NCBI RefSeq assembly: GCF_018977255.1
Contig: NW_024704755.1
Location: forward strand, 124,001 to 188,000
Reading direction: 5' to 3'
Length of the DNA stretch: 64,000 bases
Source: Callorhinchus milii
Lineage: Eukaryota
Below the pieces are notes generated by a model, which saw nothing but the letters and a program-made list of their open reading frames with translations, did no database searches and was not told where the DNA came from. The position numbers were made by a program, and so were the translations under genes. Below are positions 2,906 to 40,700 of the stretch, piece after piece; within the stretch, counting starts at the first letter, position 1; each line of letters begins with the position of its first letter.

Positions 2906-3529
2906 ATAGACAATCCTCCCCACACACACACACACACAAACCTTCCCGAGACTCTTTCCCCTCAGCACAGGATGTTGTTTGATCAGCCGATGACCACGTG
3001 TGGAAACCCATCACTGCTTAAGAGGATCGAACCAAACAGCATTCCATCGAGTCACGGAAAATGCTGACTAGAAATGGAATACTCACTCTCTCCCAGAGGG
3101 ATGCACCCTCCTTGTTTAATTCTGGAGAGTATTTAGGTGCAGGTTTGGGACCACGGCCAAGTGTGCATTGGGGATAACTGCTGGAGTCCAAACAGTTAAA
3201 ACCACATAGCTTGCCCATCGATATCGCTGTCTGGCAAGGATCCTGCTACTTGTCCAGTTAGGACTACCTTACTGTTAGGGTTAACAGGAGCCCAGTGGCA
3301 AGAGGGGCGATTGACTGGGAAACCTGGGGATGGGGGATTATTGCCTTCTGGAAGCTCCGGCCACGGTTTTAGGGGGAGCTTTTCCTCCTCACTGACTCAC
3401 TGCGTGGAAAAGATTCCAGCTTTTTAATGATTAAAGTTGAATGAAACTTGCACAGAAATATCAGCAAATGTTCAAAAATCTCAATGCATTAAAAAAACTC
3501 ATGAATATACACTCAGGGCTGCAAGACAC

Positions 3530-3780
3530 TGAAATATACACTCAGAGCCTGTTACACTCTGAATATACACCAGACCCCGTTACACTCTGAACATACACCC
3601 AGACCCCGTTACACTCTGAATATACACCCAGACCCTGTTACACTCTGAATATACACCCAGACCCCGTTACACTCTGAATATACACCCAGACCCCGTTACA
3701 CTCTGAATATACACCCAGACCCCGTTACACTCTGAATATACACCCAAACCCCATTACACACTGAGTATATACCTGGGCTG
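3530..3780. repeat. 29-bp minisatellite
   Basis: TACACTCTGAATATACACCCAGACCCCGT tandem units downstream of the CDH15 stop. Confidence 0.9.
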
Positions 3781-4299
3781 AAAGACACTGCATATAAACC
3801 CAGTTGGTGTGAAACATTGAATGTGTGAGTGAATTGTGCACATTCTTCCCAGTACTTTCTGCATAATTTACAACTAATATATTGTGTACATTGTGCATCT
3901 GTACACTCACATCCCCTCTTTCTCTCATTCCTCTCCATCTCCCACATTCCCCCTCTCCCACATTTCTCTTTCCATCTCCCACATTCTCTCCCATATTCCT
4001 CTTTGTCTCCCACATTCCCTTTCTCTCTTCCACATTTCTCTATCCATCTCCCACATTTCTCTCTCTCCCATATTCCTCTTTCTCTGTCTCCCACATTCCC
4101 TCTCTCTCTCTCTCCCCTGCCTATAAACAGCAAACCCCAATATCCATCCCCATAAGCCGACCCTTTAGAGCAGACACAGCCACCCACCCACCCCCCGAGC
4201 AGGCTGACTACAGTCACAAGCAGTGTCCAGGCTTGGGATAGGGTCAGAGTTCAGGATGAGAGTTTGCATTGCTATTGGGAATCAGCCCGGGAGCGGGCA

Positions 4300-7200
4300 T
4301 TAGTGTTCTCCATACATGTCGGCCAGCTTCCTGAAGCGAGGGCCCCAGTCATTCAGGTAATCGTAATCATGCTGGTCCTCGGCGGAGGCGGAGGCGAGGG
4401 AGCTGAGGGTCCCAGCCACAGAGCCCTCACCCTCATAGTCATAGATCAGAGCCATGTCATAGGGAGGGGCGTTGGGGTCATTGTCAGCAGCATCCAATCC
4501 CTGCAGGCAACAGAACACAATGATTCGTGTTTGGGAGGACAGATTTTCTCCATTTGCATAAAAAGGCACAAATTCTAAATTTGCTGATGATGCAAAAATG
4601 ATGTCACTAACGTAGAAGAAAACTTCAGGAGAACTTTAGAGAGATGGCGGATACAATTTAATATATTCCCCCTCTAACCCCTCCCCCATATTCCCCCTCC
4701 CCACATTCCCCCCCGCACACACCAGCAATCCCCACTCTCCCTCCCCACACTTACCCCATTGATGAAATCCTCTATATCGCTGGGATCAGCGGGTGGCCTG
4801 CGGGGGTACACTGCGGGGCTGTGGTTGTAGGGAGCATCCCTGCGGAGAGGGGGCTTCCCTCTAGCGGGAGCTGGGAACACTCTGTCCGGGTCCCGCAGCT
4901 GCTCCAGATTGTAGGCTTCCTGTAAAATCAAACCAAGCCCCAAGACAACACCTTACATACAATGTAACACACACCTTACACATAGCCAGAAGACAGCAGC
5001 TTACACACAGCGTCACATGTCACTTGAGGGAAAAACATGTGAAAAGCAAGAGATGGTACAGGAATGTGGGGGGGTGGTCGCTCGCTCACCGCATGATCCC
5101 CTCCCCTTGACCTCGGTGCCTGACCCCCATCCCCCATGTGGTTGCCGTGGTGACTGACCTGGTCCTCCTCGCCGCCGCCCTGCTCATCGTAGTTTAAGAC
5201 ATTGTCTCTGATGTCACTGTCAGAGTCGCTCAGCAACGCCTTGTGTCCCCGTCGCCCGTTCCAGCACAGGCTGACCATCACCATCACTAAGGGCACAACA
5301 CAGTCACCTCGGCTCAACCCCCACCATCCCGGCTCAACCCCCCAATGGCCAGCCCCAGCCAATATGGCCAGCTCCCCCATATGGCCAGCTGCCCCCTCCA
5401 TATGGCCAGCGCCCCCCACCCCATATGGCCGACCACCCCCTCCCCTTGTAGCTAAACCCCCTCTCTCCCCCTCACCCCGTGGCCAGAACCGCCCCTCAAT
5501 GGCCAGAAATGCCTTCACCATGGCCTGCCCCCACCGCTCTGATACATTGCAATAGTGGCTTACAGAACAGCAGAAAGAAGCTGGTGAGGATGATGATGGC
5601 GGCCCCCAGGCTGACGCCCACATGGGAGCCATGGAAAGCGGCAGCGATGGCTTCACAGCGGCCTCTGTCCCCACAGACACACACCGTCACATTCAGGCTC
5701 TGTTCGAACTCCTGGCATGGCTCCCCCGAGTCACTGACTCTCACCCCCACCTGGTAAAACCCTTCAGGCATAGCACTCAGCATCCCCAGCACGGCGTGTG
5801 TGTCTGGAACCAGAGCAACAGCCTCAGCCACACCTACGCCAGCACTGGGATCAACCTCATCACATCCTCCACTCACCGACAAGCTCCCCCCACTTACCAA
5901 CATTTCCCCCCCCCCCACTCACCGACATGCCCCCTCACCGACATGCCCCCTCACCGACATGCAACCCCCCACTCACCGACATGCAACCCCCCACTCACCG
6001 ACATGCAACCCCCCACTCACCGACATGCAACCCCCCACTCACCGACATGCAACCCCCCACTCACCGACATGCAACCCCCCACTCACCGACATACATCCCC
6101 CCCTCACCGACATCCCCCCCCTCTCACCGACATCACCCCCACCGACATCACCCCCCTCTCACCGACATCCCCCCTCTCACCGACATCCCCCCCTCACCGA
6201 CATCCCCCCCCCTCACCGACATCCCCCCCCCTCACCGACACCCACCCCCCCTCACCGACACCCCCCCACTGACACCCCCCCTCACTGACATCCCCCCCCT
6301 CACTGACATCCCCCCCTCACTGACAATCCCCCCTCACTGACAATCCCCCCTCACTGACACCCCCCCTCACTGACACCCTCCCCACACTGACACCCCCCCC
6401 TCACTGACACCCCCCCCCGCACTGACATCCCCCCCCGCACTGACATCCCCCCCCCGCACTGACACCCCCCCTCACTGACACCCTCCCCCGCACTGACACA
6501 CCCCCGCACTGACACCTCCCCCCCCCCACTGACACCCCCCCCCTCACTGACATCCCCATCACTGATACCCCTCTCAAACTCTCAGTGTAAATCACCCCGA
6601 GATTTGGGGGAATGAATGTCAACAAATTATTTCAATCCATTTCACATCACGTGGCCCCGCCCCACGCAGACCCAGGCCCCGCCCCACGCAGACCCAGGCC
6701 CCGCCCCACGCAGACCCAGGCCCCGCCCCACGCAGACCCAGGCCCCGCCCCACACCCAGGCCCCGCCCCACGCAGACCCAGGCCCCGCCCCACGCAGACC
6801 CAGGCCCCGCCCCACGCAGACCCAGGCCCCGCCCCACGCAGACCCAGGCCCCGCCCCACGCAGTCATCCAACCGTTGAGCGCTGTGATCGTCCAGTTGTG
6901 CAGTGGTTCCGAGTCAGGAAGTAACTGGAAGTGGAAGGGCTCCGCGTGCGGCTCCTGATCCTGATCCGTGGCCCAGATCAGCATTCCAGCGCCCGCGCCA
7001 GTCCCGCGGCACAGGGTTCCCGCTCCGGGGAACAGCAGCGGCGGAAAGTCATTCACTTCGGTGATGTGTATGTTCAGAGTCCCAATCACCGTGTGCGGGG
7101 GGAAGCCTTCGGACACCGGAAAACACTCCCGTTACACCTCACACAGTGACACTCTCACACACAGTGACACTCTCACACACAGTGACACTCTCACACACAC

Positions 7201-7902
7201 AGTGACACTCTCACACACACAGTGACACTCTCACACACACAGTCACACTCACACACACACAGTGACACTCTCACACACACAGTGACACTCTCACACACAC
7301 AGTGACACTCTCACACACAGTGACACTCTCACACACACAGTGACACTCTCACACACACACAGTGACACTCTCACACACACACACAGTGACACTCTCACAC
7401 ACACAGTGACACTCTCACACACACAGTGACACTCTCACACACACAGTGACACTCTCACACACACAGTGACAGCTCTCACACACACAGTGACAGCTCTCAC
7501 ACACACAGTGACACTCACACACACACAGTGACAGCTCTCACACACACACAGTGACAGCTCACTCACACACACAGTGACAGCTCACTCACACACACAGTGA
7601 CAGCTCACTCACACACACAGTGACAGCTCTCACACAAAAAACACAGTGACAGCTCTCACACACACACACAGTGACAGCTCTCACACACACACAGTGACAG
7701 CTCTCACACACACAGTGACAGCTTTCACACACACACACACACAGTGACAGCTCTCACACACACACACAGTGACGGTCTCTCACTCTCACACACACACAGT
7801 GACGGGCTCTCACACACACACACAGTGACAGCTCTCACACACACAGTGACAGCTTTCACACACACACACACAGTGACAGCTCTCACACACACAGTGACAG
7901 CT

Positions 7903-7936
<34 letters not shown>

Positions 7937-10900
7937 GACAGCTCTCACACACACACACAGTGACAGCTCTCACACACACACACACACAGTGACAGCTCTC
8001 ACACACACACACACACACAGTGACAGCTCACACACACACAGTGACCGACACGTTACTGCTCAGACTGAGGTGACGTCCACACGAGGAGTGGCGCTGACAC
8101 ACAATCCGGAACATTCTGCTCTGCACTTAAATAGTGAGCATTCGATAACTCACACCCGATGAATCTGATGTCTGAGACGAAATCGAAATCACTGATACTA
8201 TGTGATCCGAACAGGCGCCAGACAGCGGCACAGCTTACCGTGGTCGACGGCGGCGATGATCGCCGTGTAGCGGTTGTGCCGCAGGTACGGGGAGCTGCGC
8301 AGCACCACCTGCCGCAGAACAACTTCACCTGTCTCAGGATCAACCAGCAACCAGTCAGCCGGGTCATACTGAATACTGTAACTGCAACACAGCAAACAGT
8401 GTTACGTTGGAGACAGCACGTACCGAGATAGTGTACAGAGAGTGTGAGAGAGAGTGTGGGTACACACGGGGAGAGAGAGAGAGCATACACACACGGGGAG
8501 TAAAAAAGTGTCTTGGGAAGTGTGAAGCTGACCTGATGTTGTGCTGTTGTTCTCTGTCAGGGTCAGTCACTGTGTATACAGTCAGGACGGTTCCTGCTGT
8601 TGATCCCTCGGGGACCAGCAGGTTGCGGGGGTCGTCCTGAAAGCGGGGGGGCTCGTTTACGTCTGTGATCGTGATGATGACCCTGGCCGAGGGCTGACTT
8701 GATGGTGAGGCTCCAGCCCACAGTTCTGCCCAGTTCTGCACCGTCACAGTCAGGCTATAGTCGGCCACGGCTTCGTAATCCAGGCTCTGGGACAACGTAA
8801 CCACAGAGAAACTCAATCTTACTCCACAATACCCTCATCTCAGTCATATACACAATAATAATCCTTGCATTTGATATAGCGCTTTTTACGTCTTCTAGAC
8901 ATCTCGAAGTGCCTCACAGAATATACTGTAAAGTGAATTGACTGTATATTTTGTGGGTAAAAACGCTGCAGCCAATTGCGCACAGCAGCGTCCCACAAAC
9001 AGTCGTGGATTGAAGTGACCGATTTATTATTATTTTCTTTTCTTGAGGAATTATTAGAGAGAGTGTACACGGCAAGAGGCAGTGTACACTGGGAGAGGGA
9101 GTGTACCAGGGAGAGGGAGATTATATACAATGACAGGGCAGCTTGTAACACTGAGATTGTTAGTCAGACAGACAGAGAGACACAGTGGTATGTGTGTGTG
9201 TGTAAGGGGATGATATGGGGGTCAGGGACACGGTTCATATTTACCCAAACAATATCATCCTCAAACCCTCTCACCTTCTCCACCAAGACGATACCCTGGT
9301 TGGTGTGGGGGTCGGTGCTGATGCTGAAATGCCCATCCTGGTTGCCGCTGACGATGGTGTAGTTTGCCAGCCAGTTCCTGGTCCCAGCCTCATCCTTGTC
9401 CTCCACACTAACTCTGCCCACCTCCTGTCCCACTGTGTCCTCAGTCACTGCCACAGCAAACTGCACAGCAAAGGGAAACGTACACAGCTCCTTACTGCCA
9501 GGGTTCCACTAGCCGACAGACACACACCGTCTCCCCAGTTTGCAAGAGACACACACACACTTCCTGGTGTGCGAGACATACATAACACACACGTATACAC
9601 ATACACACGCACCTCGCTGGCAGTGAAGTGTGGGGCATTGTCGTTGAGGTCAGTGATGAAGATGATGGCGCTGGCTGTGTTGGCGAGGCCGACCCCAGAG
9701 AGGTCAGCGACCTGCAGCGTCAGGTTATATGTGGAGATGGTCTGCAAACACACAGCAGCAACACTATACAAACAGCAACAGTCACAGCAACTGGGTGCGG
9801 GGGTAGGTCATTAGGGGGAGGTCAATGGTCTGGGGGGAGCCAGGGCGGGGAGTGGTTCAGGTAGACGATCGGTGGGGGGGGGGTTCGGGGGGATGTTGGG
9901 TGGGGCCGGGGGAGCATCCCAGGGGGTGTCGAGGAGGCGCCTCACGGTGGGAGTCGGGGGGGCCTCACGTGGGAAGCGCCTCTCGGGGGCGGGGAGCAGA
10001 CACTGCAGACACTCACCTCTCGGTCTAGCCCCACCCCCACAGTGCGGATTTCCCCAGTGACGGGGTCGATACGGAAGAGGCCTTTGCTATGGCCGAGGAT
10101 GGAGAACTGCAACGCGGCGTTGTCTGTCTGAGGGTCATCAGCGTCAGAGGCAGCGATCTGCATCACCAGAGTTCCTGCAGCCACAGCACAGTCACCAGTC
10201 GCACACACACGCGCACCCCCCCCTCGGCGCGTACCATCCCCCCCCCCCCCCCCGAAGCACCATCCCCACCCCCCACACCGGCACACCTCACGCTGCCCAC
10301 TCACCAGGGGGAGATCCCTCCAGGACATGGCCAATGAAGTGCTGCTGGTCAAAGACGGGCCTGTTATCGTTCTGATCAATGACAATGATCTCCAGGTCGG
10401 TGGGATCCTCAAGGGGATTCCCCGACATATTCACAGCGTAAGCTTTAATCTAAACACAGAGTGAGTCAGGTGTTGGGTCATACACTGGGGCAGACACACA
10501 GCCATCAACAAAAAACATGACATTTACACAAAGCCTTTCACTTTGGGAGGACGTGCCAAGGCACTGGGCGGTCAAGGGTTTTCACCCAAGCTGTGGGCTG
10601 GAGACAAGAGGTGAGGGGTGGTGGAGGTGGAAAGAGGACGAAAGTTGCAGTCGAAGAAGAAGGTATTGAGATGGGCCTTGAAGGAAGCGAGGGAGGGGGC
10701 GAGGCGGAGGAGCTCTGGGATGGAGTTCCAGAGGGTGGGGGCAGAGAGGCTGAAGGAACGACTGATGATGGTGGAGCACGGGTAGGTCCAGGCAGGGAGG
10801 GGCGCGTGGGGTTGGGCCAGGCGGCGGCGGGCAGCATGGAGCAGGCCAGGGGTTGGGGGAGCAGGCCGGCACCTGCCGAGAACTTGATCGAGGGGAAGCC

Positions 10901-13497
10901 AGGCCACGGTCCTACCTTATAACTGGATTTCTCCTCGCGATCCAGCACCGTCATCAGCAGCACCTGCCCCGAGTCAGCGTCAATGGTGAATATCCCTCTG
11001 GGCTCCTCATCTACACCAGGGCCTTTAATACTGTAAATCACCTCCCCGGGGATCAGCTGGTCTGACTTAATCTGCAGAGAAAACAATAACTGTGTGTTGG
11101 CGCCGGGGCAGGGCCACCCAGAGTGAGGTCAGGAACCTGGAGTGGGGGCGAGGAGTTGGAGAGGGTTAGTGGGGAGCAGATTAGTGGGGGGGGGAAGGGG
11201 CGGGATGAACCGGGGGTGACGGCGTGAGCCAGGGGGACGGGGATATAGCCGGTGTGGGCGGGATGAACCAGGGTAGTGAACTGGTGGGGTGGGGGGTTAG
11301 CCGGTGGGGAATAGCGGTGAGTATAGCGGGGTGGGGTTAGCCTGTGTGGGGGGGTGGGTAGTGGTAGGGGTCACACACATTCCTAGCAGACACTGCTTGG
11401 TGAGCTCAGGGCAAGGCTAGGGTAAGTACCTGCACTAAGGGGAGGGGGATCTTGCGGGTGTTCTCGGAGACGCTGATGGGGGGAATGACCCAGGCTCTCT
11501 TCACTCGCTGCAGCCCATCGCCTCTTGCCACCGGCCGCCATGGGTACATGACAGGGACCTGGGCATGCGGGGTGTCCTTCACTGGCACTTGATTACACTG
11601 GGGACCATCGGCAGCACAACCACATGGAGGGAGAACACAAACACAGCTCAGGCTACAGGCATTTCCACACTTTGTACACAGGAGGATTGTTGTGAGTCAA
11701 TGAATGGAATATTCCCAAGAAAGTGTAAATATTGTCCAGCGCGTTTACCCCTCCCCCCACCTCCTGAAGGGTAGCAGCCTCCACCCCCCACTGGCGGCCT
11801 TGATGATGTGTGCACTGTGGGGATATGGTGAGGAGATAGTGAGAAACCCCTCAGAATATCCCCAGCTGTCCCACTGCCCAGTCCTGCAATATACACAGCA
11901 CCTGCCACAATCCTTCCCCCTCCCCCGCTCCTTTTCCCCTCTCCCCACCCCTCCCATTCTCCTCTGCCCCTCCCCCACCCCTCTCCCCCGGTTTGTTGCC
12001 CAGGTAGAATTCTCCTCACGCTGTATGAGGAATGTGTGCAGGAGTGTGTGTGAGCAGTCTGTGTGCAAATGGGCTGCTGTGTTTGCTCAATTGCCAGCAG
12101 TTACCTGTGATGTGATAAGAAGTTTGACTGTTGTGGGCACTCTATGTGAGTGTTACATCAGACGGCAGCCCAGAGTGACAGCACCACATGCAGTGGGCAA
12201 CCTCTCCTTTACACACACTCCACATTCAGGACAAGCAAAGGCTGGGGAAGAGCAGCTGAAATGCTAATTACACGGCATCTGTTACTGAGTGCAATCAGCT
12301 GTTGTATCAACTTTCTCATTTCTACAATCGAGCTTTCCCCGCGTTGTTCCTCCTCCCTTCCTGTTCAATCTGCCCGAGACACAGCCGGGGGCAGGCGGCT
12401 GATCACGGCATCAAATTAAAAGCAGATTTCAGTCCTATTTGATGGATACTAGTTACCAACAGGCTACTGTGGGAGCTGCAGCTTGTCACAGAGATTAGTT
12501 GTTTGTTTAAACAATGTGAATGAAATTTCCCTCAAGTTCAATCAAATTTCTCTTAAACAAGCCCCAACTCAAACCCTCAACCTAACCCTAAATCCAGCCC
12601 CAAACCCAATATATTGCACAAATTAAAATCCCGGTAAACCAGGTCCCCCTGAAAGGAATCCCATTCTCCAATGGGAATTTAAACCCAGCTTTTAACCCTC
12701 AATATGAGAAAAACAACATTGAAGCCGGAGGTATTTCATACACGACTGTAGCCCCTCATGTTCCCAGAACCCCCCCACCAAACCCTAGCCCGTCACAGGG
12801 GGCGCAACGACAGCAGTGATGTAACGGGGGGGGGGGACAACAACAACACATTACATTTTGTGTAGTATCGGTGGAAACAATTCTCCCAGCACCTGGGCAC
12901 ATCGCCACAGAGACATTCTGCACCACTTTAAACTGGTTTCACGGGTATCACTGGGGCTGAGTCGGGTCTCAGCTGTTAAGCCTCACAGTGAGTTCGTGTT
13001 GGGCTGTGAGAGAATGGCTGGGACCAGCGGCTGTTTCAGTTTAACTTACTTTTATCAAAGTGCAGCCAGCACGATCAGGACAGCAACAGCAGAACACAGG
13101 AAGCTGTATCCCAGATTACATCCACAAAGTACAGTCACTACACTTTACAGTATATCCTGTGAAGTGCTTTGAGACATCTCAATAATGTGATAAGGCACTA
13201 TATCAAGGATTATTATTCTCATTATTCTGGAGCTCAGTCTGTGTCACATTCAACCCACAGCTCATGTTTTAGGGAAGTGGAGCTGGGCTGGGTGCACCAG
13301 CAAGAGTGCGACTGGGCACACCTCTAAAGCACACACCCACCCTTGCATACACACACCCTCTCACACACACACCCTCCACCCTCACACACAAACCCTAAAG
13401 CTAACACCCACCCTCACACACACACCCTCACACAAGCTTCACATACCTGTACCAGCATCACCAGGGCGAGCAAAGTGAAGATTTCTGTGTCTCTCAT
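4300..13497 (-). CDS. CDH15: Cadherin-15 (M-cadherin), 14 coding exons, ~785 aa
   Basis: Exons (minus): 13497-13447, 11597-11430, 11071-10916, 10449-10305, 10174-10017, 9741-9613, 9460-9275, 8786-8533, 8381-8239, 7106-6873, 5803-5564, 5286-5159, 4919-4755, 4500-4300. All introns GT-AG with compatible phases; total 2358 nt. Signal peptide [17 protein letters not shown], short prodomain with YPWR and RVKR|[16 protein letters not shown] and DxNDNxP Ca-binding motifs, TM segment, [12 protein letters not shown] p120 site, [14 protein letters not shown] beta-catenin tail. Lies next to ACSF3, as in human. Confidence 0.93.
5870..6570. repeat. C-rich minisatellite (CTCACCGACATGCAACCCCCCA / CTCACTGACACCCC)
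   Basis: Tandem units in CDH15 intron 10. Confidence 0.9.
6652..6863. repeat. 22-bp GC-box minisatellite
   Basis: GGCCCCGCCCCACGCAGACCCA, about 9-10 copies. Confidence 0.92.
7138..8045. repeat. (CA)n-GTGACA minisatellite
   Basis: Tandem units in CDH15 intron 9. Confidence 0.93.
8855..9034 (-). mobile_element. SINE 3' half
   Basis: Core and tail of the same SINE family. Confidence 0.8.
10505..10850 (-). mobile_element. L2 3' end
   Basis: [15 protein letters not shown]...[11 protein letters not shown] plus tail. Confidence 0.8.
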
Positions 13498-13499
13498 AG

Positions 13500-13890
13500 C
13501 ACTGGAGAGGCAGAGAGAGAGCAGGGGCCGGGCTGGAGAGGCAACAAGAAATTAGGGGGCGAGCTGGAGCTGTGCTAGATGAAGACAGCTGCCTGTGGGA
13601 CACCAATTATCTGACAGCTTATTGGTTATCATAGGGTCCGAGAATGCAAGTGACTGACTGCACATGTGCTTAAGGGAGGCAAAGTCTGAAATATCTGTCT
13701 CCTGATATAGAGCAGCAACTGTCTAGAGAGACAGCAAACAGCTGCTGCTGCTCTGGCGACCCCACTCCCCCCCACCCCGCATGGGGCAGGTCACAGGTCA
13801 TGAGACAGGGTTTAGTGGCGAGAATGTGCCCCTCCTGAGCTTGTGGTCGAGAGTATCTGGGAAGTGATCCTCACCCAACAGCTGAAGTTT
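13500..13890 (-). promoter_or_regulatory. CDH15: CDH15 proximal promoter with myogenic-type E-boxes
   Basis: CAGCTG at 13586 and 13739 (ACAGCTGC context) and ~13879, CAACTG at 13716, all just upstream of the ATG. M-cadherin is a known MyoD-family target. Confidence 0.5.
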
Positions 13891-14051
13891 GGCATCTCAC
13901 AGACATTACTGAGCTCCGCAGCAATGAGGAAAGTGAGACAGACTGAAGGCATCTCTCTGACAGCATCCACATCAGTGGCTGAAATGTCTTGAGTGTCAAG
14001 CCCCAGATCCAGGTTTTCATCTTAGTCTCCCCTAATGGAGAACAAGAATAG

Positions 14052-14256
14052 TGAAACAAAAACAGAGAGAGCTGGGAAAACTCAGCAGGTCAGGCAGAAT
14101 CTATGGAGAAAGGAAAGTGAGTTAATGTTTCGGGTCCACGATCCTGTCAGAATGTTCTGACGTAGGGTCGTGGACCCGAAACGTTGACTCACTTTCCTTT
14201 CTCCATAGATTCTGCCTGACCTGCTGAGTTTTCCCGCTCTCTCTGTTTTTGTTTCA
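14052..14256. mobile_element. ~205-bp palindrome resembling a Penelope-like element pseudo-LTR, with a degenerate hammerhead core
   Basis: Near-perfect ~100-bp inverted arms centred at 14153; CTGACGTA-GGGTC-GTG-GACCC-GAAACGTT at 14157-14185. Confidence 0.6.
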
Positions 14257-14706
14257 GATTTCCAGCATCTGCAGTATTTTGTGTTAAGAACAACAGTGAC
14301 ACTGATCCAACACCCCCAGTCCTTGGTGATGAGATAAACCCTGAATCTTGTTGGCTCAGCTGCTTGCTGGGCAGTAATTATGTGCTGTTGCATGTCGTGG
14401 ACAGACAGACAGAAAGACAGAAAGACAGAGACAAATACATTGAATCAAAAGAAGTTGGGTGAGGTCTTGGTGTGAGCCAGTCGCTTGGCATCTCAGACAT
14501 TGTTTCGGGCAAATGTTTTTGAGCAGATACAGGATATGTAACTCCTGGAGAGTGAGGGTTAAAGGGCAATATTCTGTTTATTAAACAAAACGTAATGTCG
14601 CTTACTCGTGGTCACAAACTCTGAGCCGTGGGATGTGCACATAACCAGGTCAGAACACATACTGGTAACCATGTCTAGTTGCTGGTAACTGCACCGGTAA
14701 CCATGA

Positions 14707-17700
14707 CTACTTGCCAGGCTGTGGGAAGAAATGTTTCAATAAATCTTTTTTGTTAACTTTTCCCATTGGGTTGCGAGGAATTTCATCCACAAGAATCAGC
14801 TCAGAGGGGATGCTGTATGGTGCCATCTGTTCCCTGTAATGACAAATCAGCCTCACCTCAGCAACTTGTTCCTGTTTCTGTCCTCAGCACATTGACTGCA
14901 GCCCCCCCCTTCCGATCCCTCACTCACCTTGCCCACCCCTTCAGCTCCCCCAGAGACAGCGAGACTCCCTCCTGTACCGTCACCACAGCCGTCACCTTCT
15001 GACCCCAGGTAACATCAGGAACACCGATCACCGCCACATCTGCAGAGCAAAGAGACCGACCAAGTCTGTAACAGCAGCGACTCAGCACTACCCTCCCCCT
15101 GGCAAAACTAGACCCACACAATGCACACAGAGAGACACACACACCCAGTGACAGGGCGAGAGAGAGACACACACACACACAGTGCCAGGGGGAGAGAGAG
15201 ACACACACACAGTGCCAGGGGGAGAGACAGAAACATATTATTTCAACGTGGTTCAATATAAATTTGTTCAGTGGCTAACCTGCAATATGCGGGTGTGCCA
15301 GGAGGTGGCGCTCCACATACAGAGCACTAATCTTATAGCCACCACTTTTGATGATGTCGACAGATGTTCGTCCCAGAATCCAGTATCGGCCGTTCTTATA
15401 CACCGCAGTGTCTCCTGTAACACACACACACACTCCTTATACACCGCAGTGTCTCCTGTAACACACACACACACTCCTTATACACCGCAGTGTCTCCTGT
15501 AACACACACACACACTCCTTATACACCGCAGTGTCTCCTGTAACACACACACACACTCCTTATACACCGCAGTGTCTCCTGTAACACACACACACACTCC
15601 TTATACACGCAGTGTCTCCTGTAACACACACACACACTCCTTATACACCGCAGTGTCTCCTGTAACACACACACACACTCCTTATACACCGCAGTGTCTC
15701 CTGTAACACACACACACACTCCTTATACACCGCAGTGTCTCCTGTAACACACACACACACTCCTTATACACCGCAGTGTCTCCTGTAACACACACACACA
15801 CTCCTTATACACCGCAGTGTCTCCTGTAACACACACACACACTCCTTATACACCGCAGTGTCTCCTGTAACACGCACACACACTCCTTATACACCGCAGT
15901 GTCTCCTGTAACACACACACACCTTACACAGCATGGCGCCCCCTACGAGAAGGTGCTAATGGGGGTTACCGTCCAGTAAGCAGTAGATATCAGCTCTCCA
16001 GTCATTACCTGTCTTGAACCAGCCGTCGTGTGTGAATGATTCCTTGGTTTCCTCTGCTTGGTTCCAATACTTCTGAAATACTGAAGCTCCTCTGACCTGT
16101 AACTCTCCCTCTCTCCCTTCCATGCCAGGCGTGACCTGCCAACCACAACAGACATCAGGCACAGCAAGCTATAGCCACAGAACCAGTGTGTAACAGTGTG
16201 CAGTGATTCACCAATAAAAGACATTACACACCATGCAAGGTCAGAGGTCACTACAGCGGAGAACAGGAGTGATGCCAGGCTTCTCAGCTCATACAACTGT
16301 CAGCCTAGTGACGTGTATGTGTGTGTGTGCATGTGTCAGCCTCAGTGTAACTGAGTCTCTGACGGCCTGACCTTACCCTCGTCTGGTCACTGTTGCTCTC
16401 TGTGATGACGGTACAGGACGGCTGGTATCGTGAGGAGGCTTCCAGTGCGATGCGGACCTCGACCCCGGGCAGTGGGTTCCCAACCGACCCTGAGCACAGA
16501 CCACACCCACCCTGAGCACAGCCACACACCTCGGCCCGGCCAAAGAGCCTCACAGAACCCATCCACACTCCAACAGAGCCACACTAAGTTCTATGTGCGC
16601 ACTCGCGTCTGTGTGAGTCTGCGTGCGTGAGCCTGTGCGAGTCTATGTGTGTTTCTGTGTGTGTCTATGTGTGTGTGCTCATGGTAGTGTGTGCAGACAA
16701 CTTGGGTGTGTCATGTACTGTGACGTGTACAAGACAGAGAATGTCAGTGTGTGGCACAGGATGGCGTACCTGGCACACGGCTGCCATGCAGTGGGTTGGA
16801 AAGCGCCATCCCGACCTCCGTCATCCCATAGCGCTCCAGCAACGTGTGGCCTGTCAGCTTTCTCCACATCTCCAGCATCGGCTGAGGGAGAGCGGCCGAT
16901 CCTGACACCATCAACCTGCAGTCACAGCAAAGGCAGAGCCTGATCAGCCCCTCACAGCTCCAGCCCCCACCACCTCACAGCTCCCCCACTCACAGTTGCA
17001 GCAACCCCCACTACAGCAGTCCCACCTCACAGCAGGCCCGACCCCTTGCAATAGGCCCATCCCAGTCACACCCCCACATGCCACAGCCCCGCCACCAGTC
17101 CACTGTGGTTAGTCTGCTTGGCACCCACCCCACCTGATTTTGTCCTTGCACACAGCGTGGATAAAGTCCTTGACGTGGCACTGGGTGAAGTGTTTCTGGT
17201 AAAACTGGATCAGTTTGGCGTAGATGGTTGGCACGGCCATGAAGACATTAACCCGAGGCGTCCGTGAGGTGTCCGTTCTCAACAACTGCTCCCAAACCTG
17301 CAACAAAGGAATCATTAACCGGGAGTGAGCGATGCCCTGGCTGAGCCTTATCTCTATCTGCTCTGCTTTGTGCTAACTGCAGTTAAAGTACCTTCTGAGC
17401 GTTGAAGTCTGGCAGCATCACACAGGTGGCGCCCACCCAGAGCGGGCAGAGCAGTTTGTTGAGGACACCATGTAGATGGTGCAGAGGCAGCACGTGCAGA
17501 ATGACATCGTCCTTGCTCCAGGCCCACAGCTCCACTAGGGAGGTAACCTGCAGACAGAAAAGCTGTCATAATTACTGAGCCACAGACAGATTGTGTTTGT
17601 GTCCATGTGGGGGGGGACTGATTACTGAAGCTAACCTGGTGCCGCAGAGTCTGGTGTGTGGTCAGGACCCCTTTGGGCCGCCCTGTAGTTCCGCTGGTGT

Positions 17701-21730: not shown

Positions 21731-23408
21731 TCAACAGACTTGCACCATCATCCCAGAGACAAGATTGTCAAATACCCTGAAAAACAAGAAAAAATGTGTG
21801 AGAGAATGAGAAAGCACCAGAGCATGAATGACACACAGAGATAGAAACGAGTGAGATGAAGAGGGAGAGAGTGAAAGAGAAGCGTAAGCTAGAATGAAAC
21901 AAACAGAATACTTCTACCCCCAACAGCCCTCCTTACGTGGACTGGATGGGCTCCCCTGGGGTGTAGAAGGGATTGCACATGATATCGGTGTAGGAATTGT
22001 GCAGCTTTCGGAACATCTGCACAGAAATAAATAAATCAGATTCAGAGTTACGAGTGCTGGACAGCCAAGCCCACCCACTCCCAAGTCAGTGACAGCACAT
22101 GTTAGAGACACAGTAACGCTCCCTTACACTGTGTGTCCACACTCCCAGGTCAGGGTTAGAGACACAGTAAAGCTCCCTCTACACTGTGCGTCCACACTCC
22201 CAGGTCAGGGTTAGAGACACAGTAACGCTCCCTTACACTGTGTGTCCACACTCCCAGGTCAGAGTTAGAGACACTGTGAATGGTATTGGTCAGACTGCAG
22301 GGGCTATGTGTGGTGATCAGGTACTTACACTGCGGATCTCGTTGTCCCTCAGTGCAATGTTGGAGGAATCCACCACGATGATAAACTTGACTTTAGTGTT
22401 GGTTACATAGCCATACCTGCACCAGAGCTCAGGAAGTCACACCCAATCACAACACCAGTAAACAGCCACATTTGCCACATTAAATATCAAATGCAAGGAT
22501 TATTATTCTTATTATCAAATAACGTTCACAAACGCAACCGAGTCCAGGCACCGATGTGGGCTTCCAATTACTGACCATCCACTCTCCCAAAATTGCACAG
22601 AATATGCCCCCCCCCACAGGAACGCGGTGAGAAATGAAAAGTTGCCACCTGCCTTGAGTGCGTGTGAGTTGGGAACAGGAGTTACATGGGAGTGAATGTA
22701 GGGAAGGGGTCAGAGAGGATGACTGATCACTAACTGACTATCCCTCGGCATCAGCACAAGCCACTGAGTTGAGGATACACCTTGTAATCCTCGGTGGGGT
22801 ACAGCAATCCCAGGTACAGCTCTCTCTGATCCACCAGCGCTTTCCCCACCGCCGAAATCTTCTCCTCCACCACATCCAGTGACGTGTGAACCGTGTAGTG
22901 AAACTTCAACTGCTTCTCCATCGGAACAGTCTTAATGTACAACGGGTAATTCTGTACACAAACAGGTGGGATTAATGCACACCCAGTCCCGCCCCCCCCC
23001 CCACACCCCCCACACCCCCTCCCCCACACCCAGCCCCCCCCCACACCCCCTCCCCCACACCCCCTCCCCTACACCCCCTCCCCACACCCCCTCCCACACC
23101 CCCTCCCCACACCCCTCCCCTACACCCAGCCCCCCCACACCCCCTCCCCCCACCCCCTCCCCCACACCCCCCCCCACACCCCCTCCCCACACCCCCTCCC
23201 CCACACCCAGCCCCCCCCACACCCCTCCCCCACACCCCCTCCCCTACACCCAGCCCCCCCACACCCCCTCCCCCACACCCCCTCCCTACACCCAGCCCCC
23301 CCCCACACCCCCCCCCGCAGCCCCCCCCACACCCCCCCCCGCAGCCCCTCCCCCCCCCCCCACACCCCCACAGACCTGTTTGGCGATCACTGAGACACAA
23401 ACCGCCAT
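21731..23408 (-). CDS. TRAPPC2L: Trafficking protein particle complex subunit 2-like, 5 exons, 139 aa
   Basis: Exons (minus): 23408-23376, 22951-22779, 22416-22329, 22016-21937, 21776-21731 (420 nt). Translation [18 protein letters not shown]...[53 protein letters not shown]...MCNPFY...MMVQVC closely matches vertebrate TRAPPC2L. AATAAA (minus) at 20925-20930. Confidence 0.97.
22100..22275. repeat. ~54-bp tandem triplication in TRAPPC2L intron 3
   Basis: GTTAGAGACACAGTAA...CCACACTCCCAGGTCAG repeated. Confidence 0.85.
22417..22778 (-). other. TRAPPC2L: U12-type (minor spliceosome) GT-AG intron in TRAPPC2L
   Basis: The donor GTATCCTC is the only position that keeps the YKV-YGY frame. Branch-like TTCCTGAG ~11 nt before the CAG, with no real polypyrimidine tract. 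Confidence 0.8.
22990..23372. repeat. C-rich minisatellite filling TRAPPC2L intron 1
   Basis: CACACCCCCTCCC units. Confidence 0.9.
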
Positions 23409-23442
23409 CTTGGGGGCCGCTCTGGTCATGTGACGAGTAAAG

Positions 23443-23449
<7 letters not shown>
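23402..23449. promoter_or_regulatory. TRAPPC2L/GALNS bidirectional promoter core
   Basis: Divergent ATGs at 23408 (-) and 23443 (+). AAGATGGCGG on both strands; GTCATGTGAC at 23425-23434. Confidence 0.85.
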
Positions 23450-29393
<5,944 letters not shown>

Positions 29394-37700: not shown

Positions 37701-40700
37701 AGTAAAACTCATATAAATCATATGTTTATAAATTGTGATTCCCTAAGTCGTACATTCACCCAGGTCCCATTCAATTTCCTATCAAAACCATTTAGATTTC
37801 TTTGCACCAGTCATATTAATCACCCCCTAACTTGTAACGCCGCTCCCCGATCCTCCATTACTCCTGGACTTCCCAGCTGTATTAACGGCTGTAGTAAGCA
37901 TAGCCTTAATCCGTCGACACGTGCGCAAAATAACTTCATTTCCTGCCATTCAATGCAGTTCCAATGTTTGCTCTTAGGTGCGCATGTGGCGACAGGTCAC
38001 GGTGCATTGCATCATGGGAAATGTAGTCTTGACCCGTCACCACATGCGCACTTACCGTCTGCAGTGACGAACTACCGTATGTACTTACCGGCTACATTGA
38101 ATTACACACATGTGGTGTAGATTATTGATTAAATCGTATTTTATATGTCATATACAGTTTGCCCACATTTTGGATTTCATGTAAATCATATTAAGTGTTA
38201 TGATCCTGACTGATATGACCGGTATGACTTTTGCTGTAACAATCCTAGTGTTGCTATTTATCCTAGCTGTGTTGGAAAGAGTTAAAAGGGATAATGATAA
38301 TCATAATCCTTGCATTTGATATAGCATCTTATCATGTCTTTGAGACATCTCAAAGCGCTTCATGGAATATACTGTAAAGTGAATTGACTGTATATTTGTG
38401 GGCGAAACGCGGCAGCCAATTGAGCTCAGCAGCGTCCCACAAACAGTCGTGGATTGAAGTGACAAAATTAGGGTTAGGAAGCCCCGTCCTACCTCTCTGA
38501 CCCGCTGACTCCCTACCAACTTGCCCGCTCCCTCCATTCAGTGGGCTCCAATCTGCTCCATGTCTCCCGTCCAAACTGCCCTAGCATCGGTGGCCGAGCT
38601 TTCACCCTCTCTGCCCTCACACTCTGGAACTCTATCCCACGGTCACTTCGCCTCGCTTCCTCCCTTCAAGGCCGGTCTTAAGACCCTTCTCTTCGATCAT
38701 GCCTTTGGTCGCCCTCCCACCTCTCTGCCTTCTCTCACCCCTACACCATCCCTCCACCATGCTCGGGACCCGACACCTGACTGTTCAGCGCTTTGGGACG
38801 TCCTCCCGACGTGAAAGGTGCTCTATAAATGTAATTTTGTTGTTGTTGTTTCGCCTTGCCGGGAATTAAAACCCAGGTCTCTCGCCTGCAAGGCGAGTGC
38901 TCTAACCACTGAGCTACAGGACTCCATCATGTATGATAATGAAATGAGTTGCAAAACAGTCCCTTCATACTTCACTTACAAACTCAATTTAGTTTAAATT
39001 GACGCTACCTAAATAAAATGCATTGGCGTAAAGTACAATCTCTACCAAATTATAGACACCTTTGACAAACATAAAAGTTAAATCAGTCATAAATAATCTA
39101 AAAGTCATGTATAATGCAGAAAGGCACAACAAGAAAATTAAAAATCTTACATTTGATCGCAGTAAAGCCAGAAGATGGCGTTGTTTCATTCATGACTAAA
39201 ATGCTGGAAGTTTACAGCGCAGAAAGTCATGATTTTGATTTTCCTAGGGGAAATGTTTGATTACTTTCCGCCTTTGAAATTAAATGGCTCCTAATCCTTC
39301 AATCCTGTTTCATGTTGAAATGTAGAAGATTGCTTTTTGCTTCCACTGGATATGTTAAAAAAAAGTTCTGTCTTTAAAATGCTTTTAACAGGTTGTTGTT
39401 TTGTAGGTAACTGCACCTGGGGGAATAATTGCCGGTTTATTCATCCGGGAATAAATGATAAAGGAAACTACTCGCTGATAGCCAAACCAGATCCCTTTTC
39501 ACCTAATGGAGGACATCACATAGGACCTCACCCACTGATGCAGGCTAACCCATGGGTATGTAAGCCAATTAATGTTTTAATTGCTGGACTCTGCAACGGA
39601 CCGTTTTTCAGAGAAATCACTCAACATTCTACCTCCAATCAGACAACTTCCATTCTGATTTGAATTAAAATGTGTGTTTCTTAGCATGATTTTATTTTCT
39701 CTCACTTTCCATACTAATTTGGATTAAACTCTCCTGAAAGCGCTGACACCTACTGAGATGCAGTCCATGTTTGCTGATTGCTCTCTGCTGGGCCATACTG
39801 GGCATTTCCATGTGTTGCTCCAGATGTTTAATATTGATGGGCTGTTAAACCAAAAGCAAGAGGACATCACATATGAGCTGAGCCCAATCCTGCTCTCAAC
39901 AGCTGCCTTCACCTGATGTCCACACAAGCGTGTTTTAGTTGGCAGTCAATGGATAGTTGTCAAGACAAAATCCCTGCCTTTTTCCTCTCTGTCTAGCTAA
40001 GACAACTTAAACACAGTTAGCATCACTGCAGCTATCATTGTTGAGATCGGCTGGCCTGCTTCATATTACACTGAGCTTTTAGAGAAGTTAACACTTCTGA
40101 ATTTACTCGCCTGCTTAATTCTGTACCACATAACATTACCTTCCAGAAGATTCCTTCCTTCAGTGAATTATTTTAGTTGATATTTTGTACACAAGTGTGT
40201 GTGAGACACTGCATACTGCTGGGGTGCACAATAGGAGTACTGTGAAAGAATGCAGCAAAGACCTGTGGAAAGTTTTGAGGATGATTTACAATAATTATCA
40301 TTTAGCATATTGCTTCCTCATGCCATACCAAATGCCAAGATGATTACTATATTATTTTCAGTGTCTCAATTTGTCGAGTTGAGAGACCTACTGTCTGGAT
40401 TACTGAAACTTTGAAAGTAGACAAAACTCCGTCATCAAATTGACACAGTATAGAATGTGGACCTGAGGGAGCAATCCTGTTAAACATGTACATTATCCGA
40501 TTGTGCCTTTGTTCCTCCGGGTCTGGCTTCCTCCTCGTTCCCCGAGTCCTCCGCTCCACTCTCGGTGGCCGTGCCTTCAGCCACTATGACCCGAGGCTCT
40601 GGAACACGCTTCCTCACTCCCTTCGCCTTGTTCCCTCCCTTCCTATTTTCAGGTCTCTGCTGAAGACTTTTTTTTGACCGCGCCTTTAGTCACCTTCCCC

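Follow-up and report, generated by a model that had tools for sequence, protein, structure and literature searches.

In Callorhinchus milii the genes TRAPPC2L and GALNS stand head-to-head with a gap of only 34 nt (23409-23442) between their start codons, the TRAPPC2L ATG being at 23408 on the minus strand and the GALNS ATG at 23443 on the plus strand of the window, i.e. the whole stretch of 64,000 nucleotides that was analyzed. We consider it probable that this conserved pair, at its 34-nt gap, is served by a single shared promoter centered on an E-box, with transcription starts that are dispersed and partly overlap. The anatomy of the locus, the occurrence of the same pair with an E-box in corals, contigs of TRAPPC2L ending 12 and 23 nt before its ATG, and further contigs bridging the two genes are all directly observed. 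An earlier note on this DNA had claimed the 34-nt spacing of these two ATGs, the inclusion of both in AAGATGGCGG so as to form a 10-bp inverted repeat, an GTCATGTGAC E-box between them, and an 11/12 fit of both 12-mers to the TISU consensus (SAASATGGCGGC, as given in that note). The coordinates of the spacing all hold, the two copies of the repeat are the only ones in the window, the E-box is present at 23425-34 and both 12-mers fit the consensus to the extent claimed.

The two genes were identified from their second exons (Table 1). The peptide of TRAPPC2L exon 2 matches TRAPPC2L (E = 2.6e-12), that of GALNS exon 2 matches the human GALNS structure 4FDI (E = 1.3e-18), and both are 100% identical to the Callorhinchus milii TRAPPC2L and GALNS records. 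The database TRAPPC2L record of this species begins at the Met of the ATG at 23408. The GALNS record is labeled 'partial' and comes without a start; hence, the ATG at 23443 is our prediction, chosen because it is the sole in-frame ATG after a stop that yields a hydrophobic N-terminus. A Pfam search with GALNS exon 1 returned no match. Given that two RNA-like contigs match positions 23376-23520 with zero differences or gaps, the 34-nt spacing is not an assembly artefact. The genes form a head-to-head pair in the usual sense, being divergent on opposite strands with their 5' ends within 1 kb. GALNS exon 1 has 80 codons here versus 31-43 in most other vertebrate records, and is doubled by an in-frame GC-rich tandem repeat (window 23480-23654) that gives a Pro-rich stretch after the signal peptide. 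This may be a variable repeat or an assembly expansion; it contains a 46-nt exact repeat, and the contig from run X3 is nevertheless unbroken. In TRAPPC2L intron 2 there is a short piece (window 22483-22523) of a very abundant dispersed repeat, which is matched by hundreds of contigs. Judging from their translations, we take the exons beyond TRAPPC2L (window 3200-17600) to belong to a cadherin (CDH15-like) and an ACSF3-like gene, and the one beyond GALNS (window 39319-39660) to be ZC3H18-like, presumably the same arrangement as on human 16q24.3.

Table 1. Features of the TRAPPC2L–GALNS locus, in window coordinates
Feature	Position	Strand	Remarks
TRAPPC2L exon 3	22329..22416	-	exon 2-3 joint omitting 362 nt in 4/4 runs
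TRAPPC2L exon 2	22779..22951	-	peptide match, contigs
C-rich low-complexity repeat	22988..23372	.	occupies most of TRAPPC2L intron 1, flanks module
TRAPPC2L exon 1, coding part	23376..23408	-	followed by GT donor; joined to exon 2 in spliced contigs (3 studies)
TISU/YY1-like context of TRAPPC2L start, CAAGATGGCGGT	23401..23412	-	11/12; near-identical in corals
Interval between start codons	23409..23442	.	34 nt; contains TRAPPC2L contig 5' ends 23431 and 23420
E-box GTCATGTGAC	23425..23434	.	9/10 to CLEAR sequence GTCACGTGAC
Upstream ATG in E-box	23427..23429	-	TRAPPC2L frame; would add 7 residues; weak context
ATG-TGA start-stop in E-box	23428..23433	+	in frame with GALNS ATG, 15 nt before it
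Initiator-like site in E-box	23429..23434	-	+1 at 23431; coincides with X6 contig end
TISU/YY1-like context of GALNS start, AAAGATGGCGGC	23439..23450	+	11/12; apparently lineage-specific
GALNS exon 1	23443..23682	+	80 codons, then GT; hydrophobic N-terminus; start codon predicted
GALNS exon 2	23774..23897	+	peptide match to GALNS

The 10-mer AAGATGGCGG is present exactly twice in the window, at 23402-11 (-) and 23440-49 (+), against an expectation of 0.06, and two copies were seen in none of 100 shuffles of the window. At both genes the ATG within the TISU consensus is the start codon itself, annotated in TRAPPC2L and predicted in GALNS. The TISU element, whose function was defined in human cells, is positioned at +5 to +30 from the transcription start site, and the genes that bear it have a median leader of 12 nt and several start sites (Elfakess and Dikstein 2008, PMC2518114). 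The Callorhinchus milii pair resembles these genes in the 11/12 match at both ATGs and in the 12-23 nt leaders implied by the TRAPPC2L contig ends, which would fall within +5 to +30. It differs from them in that two copies of the putative element are placed back to back around one 34-nt gap. No TATA-like words were found near the module. On the genome-wide scale AAGATGGCGG by itself is hardly enriched (1698 versus 1587 for the control), and the head-to-head double AAGATGGCGG motif is unique in the genome at spacers of 5-35. Two looser double-TISU matches elsewhere in the genome (L083 with a gap of 22 nt and L084 with one of 40 nt) have no gene pair and were rejected. We also dropped the idea that the inverted repeat forms a hairpin; a single fold of 72 nt, without a shuffle control, gave -13.6 kcal/mol.

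The 10-bp inverted repeat is likely to be a by-product of two similar start contexts. A more radical reading would make all the motifs incidental, with template switching or a pair of Met-Ala starts behind the repeat and chance behind the E-box. In line with this, seven of the ten repeat letters are coding (ATG GCG G), AAGATGGCGG is not enriched in the genome, and the E-box alone is not significant in the window, being present in 26 of 100 shuffles. However, the repeat shows no inward extension, as its arms end at the motif edges and the 28-nt middle is non-complementary. Moreover, corals retain the box at the pair, it also lies upstream of TRAPPC2L in birds, a frog and fish, and its combination with a start motif is found 12 times in the genome against 0 for the control (see below). 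We regard incidental motifs as very improbable, and a chance origin of the E-box as largely refuted.

The E-box corresponds at nine of ten positions to GTCACGTGAC, the CLEAR sequence of the TFEB network (PMC9734180), and lies 8 nt before the ATG of a lysosomal hydrolase, GALNS, which has been named as a TFEB target (PMC11533276). It departs from the CLEAR element in overlapping the putative TRAPPC2L start site and in its core, which is CATGTG here versus CACGTG in corals and fish. We take the CATGTG core to be of the M-box type, and USF or other bHLH-ZIP factors would presumably fit GTCATGTGAC equally well. Within the gap the box is off-centre, 13 nt from one repeat arm and 5 nt from the other. 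The CATG form (window 23427-23433) also generates an ATG on both strands, and no such ATG exists in the CACG form of corals and fish. Short leaders would bypass both of these ATGs, and longer TRAPPC2L leaders would add at most 7 residues. The initiator consensus is matched at a sole position in the 34-nt gap, 23431, and at a further position, 23477, in GALNS exon 1; the latter could supply transcript overlap.

A search of this genome with the pattern GTCAYRTGAC N0-30 AAGATGGCG gave 12 matches at 11 loci, compared to 0 for the control. Besides the GALNS–TRAPPC2L pair, Pfam or structure searches identified PPT1, BLOC1S2, a sorting nexin, RAB22A, SIRT1, a BRCA1-like gene and CCDC174 at these loci, and by eye we take three more to be INTU, a ZNF292/RLF-like and a ZFR-like gene. 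Five of the 11 loci are endolysosomal (the GALNS–TRAPPC2L pair, PPT1, BLOC1S2, the sorting nexin and RAB22A), a classification made after the fact and without a control motif. Without the GALNS–TRAPPC2L locus the count is 4/10, for which the binomial P is about 0.006 at an assumed background of 8%. The E-box module is like the CLEAR element in lying near lysosomal gene starts and being enriched there, within the limits of after-the-fact classes and no control motif. At PPT1 (G000:C10:12823654-12823676; L089, L097) GTCATGTGAC is found 7 nt before the ATG in AAGATGGCGGCG, a distance of 8 nt at GALNS. A second box, CTCACGTGAC, lies 40 nt upstream there, so that the layout is almost that of the GALNS side. 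At several of the module loci (L085-L096) the ATG of the motif is not the start of the gene.

To what extent this architecture is shared was judged from a metagenome search with exon 2, which yielded 80 loci, five of which have the first exons of GALNS and TRAPPC2L in head-to-head order. The gaps in these five are 154, 165, 161, 162 and 186 nt, two of the five also hold further GALNS exons, and they are distinct from each other, being 59-78% alike in the interval. An exon of one locus (L046) is 100% identical to Orbicella faveolata GALNS, showing that it derives from a stony coral, and the other four are probably from stony corals too. Each of the five loci contains a single RTCACGTG, and this lies in the gap (shuffles 0-8 of 300). 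The E-box hence looks functional, a view supported by its retention at the pair in 5/5 coral loci and its enrichment together with AAGATGGCG at endolysosomal genes. The coral TRAPPC2L starts have 1-2 mismatches to TISU and the coral GALNS starts 3-7. Exon 1 was present in genomic form at 14 further loci. One of these has insufficient flanking sequence, and 2 of the other 13 carry a box no more than 150 nt away. One of these box-bearing loci (L002) belongs to a teleost, being identical to lumpfish and swamp-eel records; it has ATCACGTGAC 40 nt upstream of the TRAPPC2L start and no GALNS exon in 546 nt. Two coral-like loci (L043 and L061) have neither GALNS within about 300 nt nor a box, and L043 displays repeated GTCAC words instead. 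This joint absence implies that the box may serve GALNS alone. In two invertebrate loci (L010:9362-9753 and L005) the head-to-head partner of TRAPPC2L is not GALNS but an SPT16-like first exon, with gaps of 287 and 275 nt, although these are weak matches (E about 0.01).

For vertebrates, upstream DNA was back-read from 18 over-extended TRAPPC2L predictions, the bird records among them not counting as independent. Close upstream of the start, 10 of the 18 (8 birds, 1 frog and 1 fish, a hake) show SRD or HVT, as encoded by TCACGTGAC, compared to a shuffle mean of 0.44 and maximum of 3, and Lys precedes the Met in 14. In the eight bird records the gaps are about 79-123 nt, four of them reading into antisense GALNS and four assuming that the first Met is the GALNS start. 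Several bird TRAPPC2L proteins (P0040-P0077) are extended at the N-terminus by what is antisense GALNS exon 1, probably through annotation error, and two waterfowl-type records have three E-box words in the gap. Among the GALNS homologues no prediction reads through into TRAPPC2L so as to reveal a shark or mammal gap. The GALNS starts of birds and whales, back-read from predicted proteins, are of the GCCATG type, i.e. Kozak-type in contrast to the TISU context of Callorhinchus milii, and shark GALNS records begin with MWR. Since TISU on the GALNS side is absent in corals, birds and whales, this element and with it the mirror symmetry appear to be lineage-specific. It is likely that the E-box and the TRAPPC2L-side start context constitute the ancient core, and that the GALNS-side TISU was gained along with compaction.

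The association of the two genes is itself known, a point that the earlier note did not mention, with the human GALNS/TRAPPC2L (HSPC176) pair described as bidirectional (PMC8895820, citing Garcia and Nagai 2011). Orthologous head-to-head pairs are listed for human, chicken and Fugu, their coding gaps being 274, 138 and 1088 nt, respectively (PMC1487180 supplements), as against 34 nt here. The human transcripts, at a TSS distance of 166, are given as non-overlapping (PMC1487180), whereas some overlap is indicated in Callorhinchus milii. The same source lists 384 human pairs, of which 337 rows were compared by eye, the other 47 having TSS distances above 526; nine of these rows are blank, two are at -1 and 326 have positive coding gaps, the shortest being 54, 90 and 109. 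Thus, 34 nt is shorter than all 326 positive human head-to-head coding gaps examined (PMC1487180). For other chicken pairs gaps of 63 and 75 are given (PMC1487180). Ancient 5'-5' pairs of the HSPD1/HSPE1 type (Irimia et al. 2012, PMC3514665) are similarly short-gap head-to-head arrangements extending from cnidarians to vertebrates. The main text of that paper does not name GALNS/TRAPPC2L, and its supplementary list may hold the pair; with this proviso, a literature search found nothing on the 34-nt geometry or the coral linkage. In a sponge, bidirectional promoters contain E-boxes four times as often, and a YY1/Kozak motif lies about 10 bp after the start (PMC4773876).

The transcript evidence consists of assembled contigs from 6 of 18 runs, which are only guessed to be RNA, carry no information on strand or caps, and have ends that can be truncated. 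Of four runs examined at the interval, X1 and X3, both from one study (P1), gave a contig, and X2 and X4 gave none there, the X4 contig stopping 4 nt into TRAPPC2L exon 1. The X1 and X3 contigs pass from spliced TRAPPC2L exon 2 through exon 1 and the gap into GALNS with zero differences. That of X3 is 4145 nt long, with 1159 nt before and 2841 nt after the matched stretch, the length expected of a head-to-head fusion of two mRNAs, and its 2841-nt reach into GALNS is the size of a spliced mRNA. Such a bridge implies either DNA or an overlap of at least 30 nt in some molecules, a figure that derives from 31-letter words, whose use in the assembly is assumed. TRAPPC2L exons 2-3 are spliced in 4/4 runs, and the absence of any cover of intron 2 other than on the dispersed repeat speaks against DNA in X3; X1 may contain unspliced or DNA words (share 0.44). 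To the extent that these guesses of RNA are right, both genes are transcribed and spliced, TRAPPC2L in 4/4 runs and GALNS by the extent of X3. Other contigs of spliced TRAPPC2L have their 5' ends at 23431 (X6, study P2) and 23420 (X8, study P3), implying leaders of 23 and 12 nt, contig ends being weak hints rather than caps. These ends would place the TRAPPC2L element within the +5 to +30 range of TISU, and the bridging contigs indicate that longer molecules exist as well. The contig ends are in keeping with a short TRAPPC2L leader. None of the runs yielded a 5' end for GALNS.

These data can be set against two other accounts of the locus. If it were a strictly compact and symmetric unit, both genes would start within the 34 nt without real overlap and use leaders of less than 25 nt on their TISU elements, with the E-box doubling as back-to-back initiators at A 23431 (-) and A 23428 (+). 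Consistent with this, the X6 contig ends exactly at the sole initiator-consensus site of the gap, both start contexts are 11/12 TISU, the box-to-ATG geometry of PPT1 is the same as that of GALNS, and the ATG-TGA would be bypassed if GALNS transcription began no earlier than 23428. Nevertheless, such a unit cannot produce the X1/X3 bridge, with a GALNS start at 23428 needing a TRAPPC2L start at 23457 or beyond. The plus-strand site at 23428 is also not a consensus initiator, X8 ends elsewhere (23420) and the symmetry is not conserved, all of which leaves this account rather unlikely. Alternatively, the bridging contigs, along with the company the box keeps with GALNS in corals, might reflect a pair of promoters that are largely independent of each other. 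GALNS would then begin well upstream, within exon 1 or intron 1 of TRAPPC2L, the leaders of the two genes would be long and overlap in antisense, and only one gene would be served by the E-box. A parallel would be the human pair of MFTC and its neighbor, which we take to bear the current names SLC25A32 and DCAF13. It is alike in its very short coding gap (54 nt, the only positive human gap under 90 nt) and overlapping 5' ends, belonging to the overlapping class at a TSS distance of -329, and is unlike the present pair in the length of its overlap, 329 nt (PMC1487180). The human GALNS–TRAPPC2L pair, moreover, shows no positive co-expression in one array set (r = -0.17, P 0.18; PMC1487180 supplement). 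On the other hand, two studies yielded TRAPPC2L contigs whose ends lie in the gap, X3 is without a branch into TRAPPC2L intron 1, a long GALNS leader would include the ATG-TGA, and the teleost box lies beside TRAPPC2L though GALNS is more than 546 nt away (L002; 1088 nt in Fugu, PMC1487180). Independent promoters are hence decidedly improbable.

A shared E-box-centered promoter with partly overlapping starts thus remains our preferred reading. From the earlier proposal that one symmetric module of ~50 bp serves both genes, it retains the shared compact promoter, a probable short TRAPPC2L leader and the functional-looking E-box, and it gives up strict symmetry and self-containment, as X1 and X3 bridge the genes and the GALNS-side TISU is not conserved. 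The same proposal had offered the compact module and overlapping 5'UTRs as alternatives; the data point to both at once, given that the bridge needs an overlap of at least 30 nt. The overlapping 5' ends of the human 54-nt pair also fit the preferred reading, whereas the human co-expression value (r = -0.17) counts against it. Lysosomal (TFEB) control of TRAPPC2L, likewise part of the earlier proposal, is at present a hypothesis for which the human array data give no encouragement.

In mechanistic terms, a TFEB/TFE3/MITF- or USF-type dimer on GTCATGTGAC, together with YY1, which we infer to occupy the AAGATGGCGG sites, would establish open chromatin, and one nucleosome-poor region would span both first exons. 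Most TRAPPC2L transcripts would begin in or just beside the E-box, with the TISU context permitting their translation despite a very short leader. For one gene or both, part of the transcripts would begin inside the first exon of the other, overlapping by at least 30 nt, and it follows from such starts that the upstream core promoter of each gene would lie within the coding exon of its partner. Given the footprint sizes of initiation complexes, two of these would need to take turns instead of assembling simultaneously.

In conclusion, the arrangement is real and likely to be functional, and represents an extreme variant of a bidirectional pair known from human, chicken and Fugu. What is new is the 34-nt gap, the mixed signal of short leader and overlap, and the E-box kept at the GALNS–TRAPPC2L pair in corals. 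Should only a tighter form of the known layout hold, the locus would serve as a good illustration without adding new biology. A bolder reading of the motifs, which we hold to be doubtful, is that one 10-bp E-box could act as both lysosomal-network enhancer and back-to-back initiator with both leaders below 25 nt, and that TRAPPC2L, a gene of TRAPP trafficking, could be an ancient member of the TFEB/CLEAR regulon in a unit kept since the coral–vertebrate split. Were the dual-initiator part true, this would be the smallest vertebrate two-gene promoter. As a natural two-gene start module of 48 bp, the locus offers a test object for the minimum spacing and alternation of Pol II initiation sites, and is also suited to asking how TISU lets coding exons act as each other's promoter. 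Retention of the E-box in corals points to a possible constrained element next to the human Morquio A gene, which would be worth screening for non-coding variants. Finally, the coral E-boxes between GALNS and TRAPPC2L suggest that a lysosomal hydrolase was already under CLEAR-like control before the bilaterians arose.
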